Source: a virus. Taken from it: DNA of 61,145 nucleotides. A program made the position numbers and the translations under genes. The notes below the pieces were generated by a model, which was not told the DNA's origin, made no database searches, and worked only from the letters and a program-made list of their open reading frames with translations. Below are positions 26,747 through 49,533 of this stretch, piece by piece; the first letter of the stretch is position 1, and each line of letters opens with the position of its first letter. The stretch is from the UHGV virus genome UHGV-0030196. One strand, given 5' to 3'.

Positions 26747-27409
26747 TCACTCCACTACAAACCAGTCACATGCCAGTAAGTCGCCTACAGAAGGAACCCA
26801 CGGAACAACTACACCTTGTGCATTTTTTAAGGCGAAATAAGCACCATACGGAACGAGGTCGCCGGGGAAATATCCCTTAATGGCTTCCATTCGTGCCGGG
26901 TACTGTCCTTCAGGAACCAGCCAGCAGAATTGGTTTTCGCCGTTCCACCCGCGTCGAGCAACTTTCTTGCCATCCTTCAGCCACATCAGCGCGTCAGAAA
27001 AGTCGGCTGCTTCAAGGTCGATTTCTTCTTGTAGAGTAGCGATACCGCCAGCAGAAATAGTTACGTCCCTGGCTGTAATGAATGTCACCCCATTGTGACC
27101 TTCAATGCTGAGCGATACCCCATTTTCGGAGGTGTCGTTAACCCGGCTATAGCATTTTTCAAATGCTTTCTCTGGCACATAGACCAGATAGCCATTTTCA
27201 GCAGTGACGAGATATCCTCCTATTTGCGGGCGGAATTTTTCCAAGAACACACCATCAACACGAAGCGTCATTCCTTTTGGCTCCACGACTTCGATGCTGC
27301 CAAAAATGGGCGCATAAGCTTTGCCGACAATAACAATATCTTTGATTTTCGATGCCCGAATGATGCTGTGGCATTTGTATTTGGGGAACACCTGAAAAGT
27401 GCTGGCCAT
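26747..27409 (-). CDS. Protein with DUF2829/Tad2-like C-terminal domain
   Basis: C-terminal FSDALMWLKDGKKVARRGWNG...VGDLLACDW. Confidence 0.4.
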   Translation of the reverse strand: MASTFQVFPKYKCHSIIRASKIKDIVIVGKAYAPIFGSIEVVEPKGMTLRVDGVFLEKFRPQIGGYLVTAENGYLVYVPEKAFEKCYSRVNDTSENGVSLSIEGHNGVTFITARDVTISAGGIATLQEEIDLEAADFSDALMWLKDGKKVARRGWNGENQFCWLVPEGQYPARMEAIKGYFPGDLVPYGAYFALKNAQGVVVPWVPSVGDLLACDWFVVE

Positions 27410-27423
27410 AATCCTTCCTCTAC

Positions 27424-27918
27424 TTAAAACTTTGCGTACTGAAGCGGTGTACGCTTGATTTCAACGCGGCCTTCCGATGTGCTACCAAAGCCACCAGCAC
27501 CTCGTTCTGTTTCATCGAGTTCATCAACTTCTACCAGCGATACCGGTTCAACACGCTCAAAAATGCCTTGCATGACCGCCATCCCCGGCTTGAGGCAAAC
27601 GCCTTCACCGCCTGGATCAGTAATCAGTTTTGCCATGATTTCACCGCGATAATCGGAGTCGATAATTCCTACGCAGTTAGCCAAGCGAGTATGTTTTTTA
27701 CAGCCCAATCCGGAACGCGGATAGAGTTTCAGACACCAGCCGGGCGGGATCTCCATAGCCAGCCCGGTATGCACCCACCAGCTTGAGGAAATTGCACCAT
27801 TGCTATCGACGCACGGTGTTATTTCAACAGCCTCAAAATCCATCGCCGCCGATCCGGCAGTGGCATAAGCTGGAAGTTTTGCTTCCGGATGTAGGCGTTT
27901 CACTTTTACGTAAATCAT
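27424..27918 (-). CDS. dut: dUTPase
   Basis: AGSAAMDF, GIIDSDYRGE and RGAGGFGSTS motifs. Confidence 0.8.
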   Translation of the reverse strand: MIYVKVKRLHPEAKLPAYATAGSAAMDFEAVEITPCVDSNGAISSSWWVHTGLAMEIPPGWCLKLYPRSGLGCKKHTRLANCVGIIDSDYRGEIMAKLITDPGGEGVCLKPGMAVMQGIFERVEPVSLVEVDELDETERGAGGFGSTSEGRVEIKRTPLQYAKF

Positions 27919-28391
27919 TGTTTTTTAGCTCTCTGCGTGAAGGTGTAAACCCGACGTTTGATATGTGGAACGGTAGGAACAGGAAGACAGGAACTTTCAA
28001 TAACTCCTTGTTCTTCCAGCGATCGCACAGCCCGCAAGAACTGCGACGTGTCGCCGCCAAACTGGCGGGCATAGGTGCTGCCGTTATGAAGTATTTGAGC
28101 TATTACCCGTGCTTTTGTCTGGCTGTCACGATATGCGAATAGCCGCACGGCCTCTTCTGGCGAAATCGCTAACTGATAGCCTTTCCCGGCACGGTGTCGA
28201 ATGAATCCATGCGCCAGCAGGTTTTTGAGTTCGTTACGAGTGCGAACAGATCCGTAATCCAGGAAGTGCGGATTGATAACGACTGGCTTAAACCATTCAG
28301 TTGGTGATTTAGCCAAAAGAGCTAACAGCTTCCCGGACAATTCCGGATACGAAGACGGGTAACAATTCAGAGATGGGTAATAATTTTTCAC
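27915..28391 (-). CDS. Hypothetical protein (158 aa)
   Basis: ORF. Confidence 0.4.
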   Translation of the reverse strand: MKNYYPSLNCYPSSYPELSGKLLALLAKSPTEWFKPVVINPHFLDYGSVRTRNELKNLLAHGFIRHRAGKGYQLAISPEEAVRLFAYRDSQTKARVIAQILHNGSTYARQFGGDTSQFLRAVRSLEEQGVIESSCLPVPTVPHIKRRVYTFTQRAKKQ

Positions 28392-28744
28392 CGACGCCCC
28401 CTTGCAGGATAGCGACCTGTATTAGTCTCCGGTGCGATGAAGCCTGTAGTGGGGCGAGTGAAAGCGAGATTAATTTTCTCGACCATAGTGCGATAATTTT
28501 CCTGATAGTGGGCCAGGAGTTTTTCGGCGGCAATGATGGTTACTTTCCGGACGTAGCTTTCCGCTTCCTCCAGATTTCGCCAGTTTTTTTCGAGGGTAAA
28601 CACAGGGACGGCCTCAAGCCCGGTCATGATGCCGAATACAACGACAGCATGACTGTTCTTAACACCAGAGGCGAAGGTTACGGTGTAACCATCCACCGTG
28701 AAGCGTCTTGATTCCGTGATTTGACTCTGCAAAGCACCCTCCAA
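28388..28744 (-). CDS. Hypothetical protein (118 aa), first gene after the recombinase (P1 cra position)
   Basis: ORF; operator motif upstream. Confidence 0.4.
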   Translation of the reverse strand: MEGALQSQITESRRFTVDGYTVTFASGVKNSHAVVVFGIMTGLEAVPVFTLEKNWRNLEEAESYVRKVTIIAAEKLLAHYQENYRTMVEKINLAFTRPTTGFIAPETNTGRYPARGRR

Positions 28745-48663: not shown

Positions 48664-48814
48664 AGGATTTCCCCCTCTAAACCGTAAAAAATTCCGCTAT
48701 GCGGTACGGTTGAGAGGGTATGGAGAATGTTATTTTCAGGGGGACGATACTACCGTCAAAATCACATACTCCCCATAGTTTGCCTACTTATTAACCCATG
48801 ACCGGGAGAAAAAT

Positions 48815-49300
48815 ATGGCAAACATTGAACCTCGCTGGCTAATTGAAGCCCGTAAGCACATTGGCCTGACTGAAATAAAAGGCGCTAAACACAACCCTGA
48901 AATCGTTCAGTTCTGGCGCGACATCAAGCGCGGCGGAATTAAAGACGATGAAACGCCGTGGTGCGCAGCATTTGTCGGTGCAATGCTGGAACGTGTAGGC
49001 ATCCGCTCAACAAGATTTGAGTCGGCAAAATCCTATCTGGATTGGGGCGAGAAATTAGATACACCGGCATACGGATGTATCGTTGTATTTACCCGCGTAG
49101 GCGGTGGGCACGTAGGCTTCGTTGTCGGACGCCGCGCCAATGGCGATCTGCTTGTCCTGGGTGGGAACCAGGGGGATGCGGTTAATATTCGTGCATTCCC
49201 AACATCAAGAGTGTCTGGCTATCGCTGGCCTGCTGGCGAACCACGCAATACCGCTCTGTTACCAGTCGGAGACGCAGCAACCTCAACTAATGAGGCATGA
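48815..49300 (+). CDS. CHAP/NlpC-P60-like peptidase (TIGR02594-like), putative cell-wall hydrolase
   Basis: TPWCAAFV catalytic-Cys context and GHVGFVVG His motif. Confidence 0.5.
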   Translation: MANIEPRWLIEARKHIGLTEIKGAKHNPEIVQFWRDIKRGGIKDDETPWCAAFVGAMLERVGIRSTRFESAKSYLDWGEKLDTPAYGCIVVFTRVGGGHVGFVVGRRANGDLLVLGGNQGDAVNIRAFPTSRVSGYRWPAGEPRNTALLPVGDAATSTNEA

Positions 49301-49332
49301 AAAAAGCCCCGGCCAGGCCGGGGCATCACGCT

Positions 49333-49533
49333 TCAAGTCACGATCCAATCATTACCGACTATATCAGCCGTCGATAAATCAACTTCCCGGATCTGGAGTC
49401 CATTAATACAAAACCATCCGGTAGTAGAGTAATTATCAGGCCAGGCCCATACACCAACACTCCATGCTTTACGGCGGCACACTTCAGCCTGTCCTTCCCT
49501 GATTTTTTTTACCGCCTGCATGATGTCCATCAC
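49333..49533 (-). CDS. Small protein with DUF2829/Tad2-like pattern
   Basis: CRRKAWSVG...DLSTADIVGNDW shares the pattern of the other two. Confidence 0.3.
   Translation of the reverse strand: MMDIMQAVKKIREGQAEVCRRKAWSVGVWAWPDNYSTTGWFCINGLQIREVDLSTADIVGNDWIVT

Follow-up and report, generated by a model that had tools for sequence, protein, structure and literature searches.

Proteins of the Tad2 family sequester a range of ligands, including 3'cADPR, His-ADPR, N7-cADPR, cUMP/cCMP and CBASS dinucleotides (10.1101/2025.08.24.671296; 10.1101/2023.11.15.567273). SPO1 Tad2 contacts 1''-3' gcADPR through W25, N26, W73 and D79, together with S76, T78, I63, T65, D67 and H71 (10.1101/2023.05.01.538930), and the equivalent residues of HgmTad2 are W21, N22, G23, W87, S90, T92 and D93, with a dinucleotide pocket formed by R31, P32, D34, L36, K46, S47, F70, T71 and N85 (10.1101/2023.11.15.567273). 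ModTad2 is inactive against type I Thoeris. It sequesters His-ADPR, the signal of type II Thoeris, a system that is also inhibited by Tatumella Tad2, an enterobacterial member of the ModTad2 clade (10.1101/2024.01.03.573942). A second pocket of ModTad2 takes cUMP/cCMP of the Pycsar system (10.1101/2025.08.24.671296). Here we analysed the virus genome UHGV-0030196, a stretch of 61,145 nucleotides (hereafter the window), in which a first-pass annotation had proposed that three dispersed open reading frames (ORFs) share a signature of the DUF2829 family that includes Tad2.

Tad2-like domains in the window

The three ORFs were confirmed on the minus strand and encode proteins of 220, 191 and 66 amino acids (aa), which we call copies 1, 2 and 3. 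When profiles of these copies were run against every ORF of the window, a possible copy 4 came up. The genes and their domains are as follows.

26747..27409, minus strand: copy 1 gene, 220 aa, consisting of an oligonucleotide/oligosaccharide-binding (OB) domain, a linker and a Tad2 domain (ORF, PF11195, DUF2829 annotation in near-identical plasmids)
27134..27409, minus strand: copy 1 N-terminal domain, aa 1-92, an OB fold like phage L Dec (phmmer, Foldseek, predicted local distance difference test score (pLDDT) of ~85-91)
27023..27133, minus strand: copy 1 linker, aa 93-129, low-confidence and beta-rich (pLDDT <50), recombining independently of the flanking domains
26750..27022, minus strand: copy 1 Tad2 domain, aa 130-220, ModTad2-like (PDB phmmer, Foldseek, pocket residues)
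35091..35666, minus strand: copy 2 gene, 191 aa, homologue of D6 orf6, phrog_7362, annotated as hypothetical (ORF)
35373..35666, minus strand: copy 2 N-terminal domain, aa 1-98, without a family match
35094..35372, minus strand: copy 2 Tad2-like domain, aa 99-191, of the long-insertion type with an altered pocket (PF11195, hhalign)
49333..49533, minus strand: copy 3 gene, a 65/66-aa mini Tad2-like protein, D6 orf17, phrog_7385 (ORF, family profile)
40243..40443, minus strand: possible fourth copy, 66 aa, phrog_7206, in the ulx-darB region immediately after a VRR-NUC gene (hhalign match to the copy 3 family)

The motif as originally written (ARR..W, 40-60 aa, D..A.DW) fits only copy 2. Copy 1 carries ARRGW, with one residue instead of two between RR and W, and copy 3 carries CRRKAW and D..G.DW, the two halves lying 33 aa apart. 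A relaxed form, [AC]RR.{1,2}W.{30,65}D..[AG].DW, retrieved exactly these three of the 746 six-frame ORFs of at least 40 aa and gave no match in 300 residue shuffles, indicating that the motif is genuinely shared rather than a chance match. Taken by itself, the C-terminal half D..[AG].DW was likewise confined to the three ORFs. The observation of a shared motif holds, in the relaxed form.

The family had been named correctly: DUF2829 is PF11195, now named 'Tad2-like' (Thoeris anti-defense 2-like domain), for which Pfam sets a gathering score of 25 bits. Copy 1 scored 80.2 bits (E 1.6e-22; aa 136-219, model positions 2-73 of 73) and copy 2 scored 38.6 bits (E 1.6e-9; aa 102-190), so that two of the three proposed members passed, and copy 3, at 15.1 bits, fell under the gathering score. 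In the PHROG library, all three copies belong to families of unknown function.

The evidence is strongest for copy 1. When aa 130-220 were compared with PDB sequences by phmmer, the matches were ModTad2 (9EIB/8V3E, ~8e-21), HgmTad2/AcrIIA7 (9e-12), SPO1 Tad2 (1e-9) and SptTad2 (3e-9). An AlphaFold2 model of the monomer, based on an alignment of 30 homologues, had a mean pLDDT of 77, with ~85-90 in the two domains (~85 in the Tad2 domain) and <50 at aa 93-129. The comparison with Tad2 structures that the first-pass annotation had suggested bore out its prediction for this copy, as the best 24 Foldseek matches of the model in the PDB were all Tad2 structures, with target-normalised TM-scores of 0.63-0.88 (for 9eib, E 9e-9 and 0.76-0.88). 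The model conforms to the Tad2 fold, which consists of an N-terminal helix and a five-stranded antiparallel sheet with loop helices a2 and a3. Mapping of the pocket positions through HMMER alignments showed that the core pocket residues W, N, (G), W, S and D are all present, and that the adenine side of the pocket differs from SPO1 Tad2 by I63L, T65N, D67Q, H71V and T78G. Together, the hidden Markov model score, the PDB sequence matches, the predicted fold and the pocket residues establish copy 1 as a bona fide Tad2-family domain.

As judged from its sequence and model, copy 1 is likely to adopt the Tad2 assembly and to sequester a signal derived from ADPR or a cyclic nucleotide, with the ModTad2 type of signal the most likely. 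In the mechanism that we propose, the Tad2 domain, joined by a flexible linker to a Dec-like OB domain, would form the usual Tad2 oligomer and soak up an ADP-ribose-derived or cyclic-nucleotide alarm signal of a host Thoeris, Pycsar or CBASS system, and the defence effector would then never be switched on. The relevant kinds of signal exist in Escherichia; a study of sponge diversity used the Pycsar system of E. coli E831 and the CBASS system of E. albertii (10.1101/2025.08.24.671296). One part of the supplement to that preprint contains no tested close homologue of copy 1.

Its sequence places the window among the D6-like phage-plasmids of E. coli, which belong to the P1 family. Around the three ORFs, identity is 95-98% to non-mobilizable E. 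coli plasmids of ~90 kb and ~90-96% to Escherichia phage D6, itself a phage-plasmid of the P1 family, and the annotated relatives carry P1-type genes (a cre-like recombinase, a C1-like repressor, pacA/pacB, lpa, darB, ulx, icd, ant, repL and portal). Tad2 has been reported in 93% of D6-like phage-plasmids (10.1101/2025.09.12.675607). Proteins of the copy 1 type occur in 312 PLSDB records, P1-like elements included. For copies 2, 3 and 4 the counts are 125, 122 and 119 records, nearly all of them ~90-kb non-mobilizable plasmids of Escherichia, Salmonella or Shigella, a distribution that marks these three copies as a D6-lineage set; among phage records, copies 2 and 3 were found in D6 only. In RefSeq plasmids, copy 1 alone has a name (DUF2829), and copies 2 and 3 are 'hypothetical'.

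Architecture and setting of copy 1

The N-terminal domain of copy 1 resembles the decoration protein Dec of phage L (PDB 6E3C) in sequence (phmmer E 0.0018 for aa 57-98) and in the modelled fold of aa 1-92 (Foldseek E 2.2e-3, probability 1.0, 25% identity over 88 columns). Other relatives found in the homologue search join the same Tad2 domain to a C-terminal PF21825 (crAss001_48-related) domain or to other N-terminal modules, and the version of copy 1 in D6 itself is a protein of 146 aa without the OB domain.

A segment-wise comparison of copy 1 of the window with 29 homologues showed that the OB domain, the linker, the helix-to-beta2 segment, the insertion and the C-terminal pocket segment have been exchanged independently among them, as three homologues illustrate (percentages relative to copy 1).

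P0013: OB domain 99%, linker 51%, Tad2 domain 100%
P0015: OB domain 53%, linker 95%, Tad2 domain 100%
P0016: OB domain 98%, insertion 32%

In all 30 copy 1-type sequences, W25, W73, S76 and D79 are invariant. Position 26 holds N or K, K being accompanied by T65D, H71S/N and T78D/A, which gives two pocket alleles at SPO1 positions 26/65/71/78 (N26/N/V/G and K26/D/S/D(A)) on otherwise similar proteins. The beta2-beta3 insertion exists in at least three interchangeable versions. The two co-varying versions of the pocket would fit a ligand pocket under diversifying pressure that tracks different host signals.

Two further rearrangements were seen among the homologues. P0057, found in E. coli phage-plasmids, is a 241-aa dUTPase-Tad2 fusion from which the OB domain has been removed by a deletion between GAGG in the dut C-terminus and AGG in the copy 1 linker. 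P0027, a protein of 306 aa on a single 10-kb contig, joins a tail-fibre N-terminal repeat (PF03406) and part of the OB domain to Tad2 and is probably a recombination product.

Copy 1 lies in a string of genes in the order cre-like recombinase, two small ORFs, dut, copy 1, isaA-like gene and a 364-aa ORF. The neighbouring features of this string are listed below.

29978..30005, minus strand: promoter-like site TTGGCA-16-TATAAT (11/12 consensus match only) ahead of the cre-like recombinase-dut-copy 1 string
27424..27918, minus strand: dUTPase gene (dut), directly upstream of copy 1 (ORF, annotation)
24889..25983, minus strand: 364-aa ORF ending the string, with a weak match to terminase large subunit (phrog_2, E 3e-10)

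The real pacA/pacB genes are located elsewhere than this last ORF. A Tad2 homologue of Bacillus phage Shanette likewise adjoins dut. In Klebsiella Lastavirus phages, the same OB+Tad2 gene is found two genes after the repressor, in an early operon, and a sister phage has at that locus a protein with the same N-domain and a different C-terminus. Klebsiella phage vB_KpnP_ZX1 (3986..4510 of the locus examined) encodes a Dec-like OB domain without Tad2 at the early-operon site where SopranoGao has its OB+Tad2 gene, and the OB module is therefore mobile on its own.

Divergent copies and the antirepressor operon

Copy 2 matched the Tad2 reference in hhalign at 94.5-95.4% probability (E 1.7e-8). Its nearest PDB sequence is the long-insertion protein SptTad2, with which it has the '...LP(E/D)...' segment of the insertion in common. 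The N-terminal aa 1-98 gave no match in Pfam, NCBIfam or the PDB. The core pocket of copy 2 reads W, P, W, T, D, so that both Trp residues and the Asp are kept; SWP-KG (SWPKG) takes the place of GWNG, with a one-residue deletion, and T and V occupy the positions of S90 and T92. SWPKG, DWFA and VDI.ATDW are invariant in the copy 2 family down to a homologue of 53-56% identity, indicating that these pocket positions are under constraint. Its 3' part runs into the beginning of the following ORF (D6 orf5), and lpa-pacA-pacB are found downstream. Sequestration of a nucleotide signal by copy 2 is plausible, and it is about an even prospect that the copy binds a different small molecule.

Copy 3 is a more remote relative. 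An earlier word-indexed search had given only three near-identical matches, and an exhaustive phmmer search of 1.84 billion representatives added few: P0135, P0136 and P0137, all on ~88-110-kb enterobacterial contigs or plasmids. Another match from the phmmer search, P0134, was rejected as a spurious repeat protein. Against PF11195, P0137 scored 23.9 bits and P0136 scored 14.0 bits, each across nearly the full model. A five-member copy 3 profile aligned with 31 Tad2 domains over 63 columns (hhalign 85.7%, E 5.4e-6, score 32.3), and 200 column shuffles of the query alignment had a mean score of 10.3, a standard deviation of 2.4 and a maximum of 20.2. The family profile was needed for this result, as the single sequence gave E 0.009 and a probability of 4.5%; neither copy 3 nor its family profile retrieved a Tad2 protein from the PDB sequences. 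In the alignment to Tad2, the entire beta2-beta3 insertion is missing from copy 3. An AlphaFold2 model from a shallow alignment (pLDDT 67.9) has the order a1-b1-b2-b3-b4-a3-b5 (helix, four strands, helix, strand), which is the predicted equivalent of the SPO1 Tad2 order minus helix a2. Two of the four core pocket residues survive, W25 and D79; the N26 position is S (P in relatives), and the W73 position is V/I/F/Y in the family. These results suggest that copy 3 is very probably a truncated remote homologue of Tad2 rather than a demonstrated member.

Copy 3 belongs to an antirepressor operon with the following features.

50662..50714, minus strand: a1/b1 target sites of the C4 RNA (Rfam RF03163, 54.4 bits, above the gathering score)
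50509..50594, minus strand: C4 antisense RNA of an immI-type immunity operon (Rfam RF01695, 68.8 bits; gathering score 45)
49530..50282, minus strand: ant, a Rha-family antirepressor gene (PF09669, 36.8 bits; 62% identical to D6 Ant2 aa 1-237)
49306..49324, minus strand: strong intrinsic-terminator-like hairpin directly after copy 3, with 8 G-C pairs followed by a T run

The C4 RNA and its a1/b1 targets lie upstream, followed by icd, ant and copy 3 on the same strand. The stop codon of ant overlaps the start of copy 3 (TGATG), and a Shine-Dalgarno sequence, GGAGGTGA, is located inside the 3' end of ant. Given the upstream elements, the overlap and the terminator-like hairpin, copy 3 is the last gene of the immI-type operon.

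A tblastn search with copy 3 found two matching places per record in D6 and most D6-like plasmids, both loci being present in ~100 of 122 D6-like plasmids. The second locus of D6 (NC_050154.1, 74022..74963) is another icd-ant module, whose Ant, orf82 (Ant2), is a protein of 313 aa: its aa 1-237 are 62% identical to the Ant of the window, and after a short linker its aa 249-313 are 40% identical to copy 3 (E 1.7e-17). A fused Ant of this kind, P0135, which is 97% identical to D6 orf82, is present in at least three E. coli/Salmonella records. The window is without the second icd-ant module and has the split version only. Since D6 Ant2 consists of Ant and a copy 3-like domain, ant and copy 3 represent the split form of a fused antirepressor, and this relation points to joint work of copy 3 with Ant and not to an independent sponge. 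The linkage is not universal, because the Raoultella relative P0137 is not next to an ant gene. In our interpretation, copy 3 most likely acts together with Ant, with or without a ligand; that it is a free sponge seems rather unlikely. It is very improbable that the mini domain attached to Ant is a small-molecule sensor that gates Ant on a host immune or stress nucleotide signal. In the library of papers searched, none pairs DUF2829 with an antirepressor.

Copy 4 carries ARRRSW near its N-terminus and ADDWEF at its C-terminus, in the same register as copy 3, and is conserved in 119 plasmids at 36-98% identity, always after VRR-NUC. A full-length alignment of the copy 4 and copy 3 families in hhalign scored 29.5 (80%, E 1.4e-5), against a mean of 10.4 and a maximum of 27.6 for shuffles. 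Copy 4 had no match to PF11195 or elsewhere in Pfam at E<=1, and its family did not match the Tad2 profile in a direct comparison (E 0.05). The match to Tad2 became weaker (E 0.003) when the families of copies 3 and 4 were combined, and for this reason we do not claim copy 4 as a Tad2 relative in its own right. Copy 4, which the first-pass annotation had not picked up, is a probable paralogue of copy 3, and its Tad2-like status is a lead only.

Other features of the region include known anti-restriction genes and a tRNA cluster.

41353..41787, minus strand: Ulx-like gene, anti-restriction
~41.8-48.7 kb, minus strand: DarB-like gene(s), anti-restriction
36123..37381, minus strand: four tRNA genes in a cluster that, as in D6, separates the copy 2 region from the tciA/tciB-like region

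As the Ulx-like and DarB-like genes lie between them, the mini copies 4 and 3 flank a known anti-defence block. A search of the window for the P1 C1 operator consensus, ATTGCTCTAATAAATTT, with up to 3 mismatches found no site.

Competing explanations and comparison with known systems

The overall explanation that we favour, and regard as moderately probable, is a paralogous set of Tad2-like (PF11195) domains in three packagings, in which copy 1 is a sponge, copy 2 has an altered ligand and copy 3 goes with Ant. Copy 2, which is divergent and has a long beta2-beta3 insertion and an Asn-to-Pro change in its pocket, would probably take a different small molecule, and copy 3, which has no central insertion and is the translationally coupled last gene of the C4-controlled icd-ant operon, would work with the antirepressor. 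Several points weigh against this explanation. The sponge-diversity study dropped Tad2 homologues that also carry 'PF21825 or PDB 6E3C' before choosing its test proteins (10.1101/2025.08.24.671296), and the OB+Tad2 architecture of copy 1 therefore lies outside the published functional assays. The N-terminal fusion is placed beside helix a1, which interlocks the tetramer, and could hinder assembly. In copy 2, the phosphate-contacting Asn is replaced by Pro, and none of the nine dinucleotide-pocket residues of HgmTad2 is present according to our alignment-based mapping. The host is not known to have a Thoeris, CBASS or Pycsar system, and the presumed timing of expression is read from consensus promoter and terminator matches. 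The first-pass annotation had suggested that multiple copies would mean anti-signalling functions; its idea is not refuted, given the DUF2829 matches and the similarity to Tad2, and as to sponges it is well founded for copy 1 and plausible for copy 2. For copy 3, which is truncated, has lost two of the four core pocket residues and is tied to Ant, it is doubtful.

Copy 1 might instead be the sole working sponge, with the fold re-used in copies 2, 3 and 4 as protein-binding or regulatory modules, for example in copy 3 to tune the binding of Ant to C1 without a ligand. Such re-use would explain the erosion of the pocket (N to P in copy 2, loss of the N26 and W73 equivalents in copy 3), the replacement of the conserved Asp in copy 4 and the constant tie of copy 3 to Ant, split or fused (but the distant relative P0137 is not beside ant). 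However, the pocket-equivalent residues (W..., D....DW) are the most conserved ones in each sub-family, as expected if the pocket or interface is still used, and the Tad2 family is noted for its wide ligand plasticity (10.1101/2025.08.24.671296); we consider this re-use rather unlikely. It is also improbable, and more so, that copy 3 (and copy 4) resemble Tad2 by convergence or chance, as unrelated small alpha/beta proteins that share RR..W and DW. The sub-threshold score of copy 3 on PF11195, the lack of a PDB sequence match for copy 3 and that of a Pfam match for copy 4 would be in line with chance, but the profile-profile score of copy 3 is well above the shuffle maximum (32.3 against 20.2), three members of its family each align with PF11195 over the full length below the threshold (15.1, 14.0 and 23.9 bits), and its predicted secondary-structure order is that of Tad2.

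Two other readings concern the nature of the proteins. If copy 1 were a virion decoration protein, its OB domain would bind the capsid, its linker would form a trimeric spike and its Tad2-like domain would be displayed on the particle. The match of the N-terminal domain to phage L Dec in both sequence and fold agrees with this, as does the linker, a beta-rich segment that lacks order in the monomer model and resembles the Dec spike region (PMC11398494). We nevertheless regard a virion protein as highly unlikely, because the gene stands among the cre-like recombinase, dut and isaA-like genes and not among head genes, the Lastavirus OB+Tad2 gene is in an early operon near the repressor, P1 virion proteomics found no decoration protein (PMC9024508), the 146-aa D6 version has no OB domain, and a sponge outside the cell could not meet intracellular signals. 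Database labels would make the copies anti-CRISPR proteins (AcrIIA7-like) or type I toxin-antitoxin (TA) toxins: PDB 8kbi and 9kzr were deposited as 'Inhibitor of Type II CRISPR-Cas system / AcrIIA7', and some homologues of copy 2 are labelled 'MW1434 family type I TA system toxin'. Either function is extremely improbable. HgmTad2/AcrIIA7 showed no Cas9 inhibition upon re-testing (10.1101/2023.11.15.567273), the copies are soluble-domain proteins and not short membrane peptides, and an NCBIfam scan gave no family for any copy or for P0131, which leaves the toxin label unsupported.

Tad2 sponges are a well-studied means of phage counter-defence and have already been reported in D6/P1 phage-plasmids, so that copy 1 is ordinary and the novelty of the set is modest. 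What the existing annotation does not show is that this element has additional relatives of the domain, unannotated and increasingly divergent, which suggests either a broadened range of ligands or re-use of the fold. The OB+Tad2 architecture left out of functional screens is common and mosaic and has exchangeable pocket alleles, and the use of a mini Tad2-like domain as an accessory or C-terminal domain of an antirepressor is new with respect to the library of papers searched. If that domain were indeed a sensor, the phage-plasmid could leave lysogeny or commit to lysis when the host alarm fires, and immune signalling of the bacterium would be linked directly to the choice between lysis and lysogeny. 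The carriers are widespread elements of clinical E. coli and Salmonella.

Among the described systems, copy 1 is closest to ModTad2/MoTad2 of a Myroides odoratus prophage (9EIB, 8V3E), to which its Tad2 domain is ~45% identical; the two share the fold, the length class of the short insertion and the pocket residues W, N, W, S and D. Unlike ModTad2, copy 1 has a 129-aa N-terminal extension (OB domain and linker) and differs at the specificity positions T65N, D67Q and T78, where it has G and ModTad2 has S. With SPO1 Tad2 (gp34.65; 8SME-8SMG), the founding type I Thoeris sponge, copy 1 shares the domain and the core contacts W25, N26, W73, S76 and D79, and the homotetramer pocket architecture of that protein is presumed for it as well. 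It is only ~33% identical to SPO1 Tad2, carries I63L, T65N, D67Q, H71V and T78G, and has Escherichia and not Bacillus as its host. Phage L Dec (6E3C) is matched by the OB fold of copy 1 and the beta-rich segment that follows; unlike Dec, copy 1 is found in an early/accessory gene context and ends in a Tad2 domain rather than in a spike alone.

Copy 2 has the long beta2-beta3 insertion of HgmTad2 (AcrIIA7) and SptTad2 (8KBI-8KBM, 8WJD), which also bind cGG/cGAMP, and it differs from HgmTad2 in the gcADPR pocket (N22 to P, T92 to V) and in an extra N-terminal domain of 98 aa. The operon of copy 3 corresponds to the P1 immI operon (c4-icd-ant), with the C4 RNA, the a1/b1 targets, icd and a Rha-family ant in the same order, and copy 3 shares their transcript as its final gene. 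We know of no Tad2-like domain in P1 Ant. Unlike P1 immI, the antirepressor of the window has a Tad2-like mini-domain as its downstream gene, and in D6 Ant2 the two are fused.

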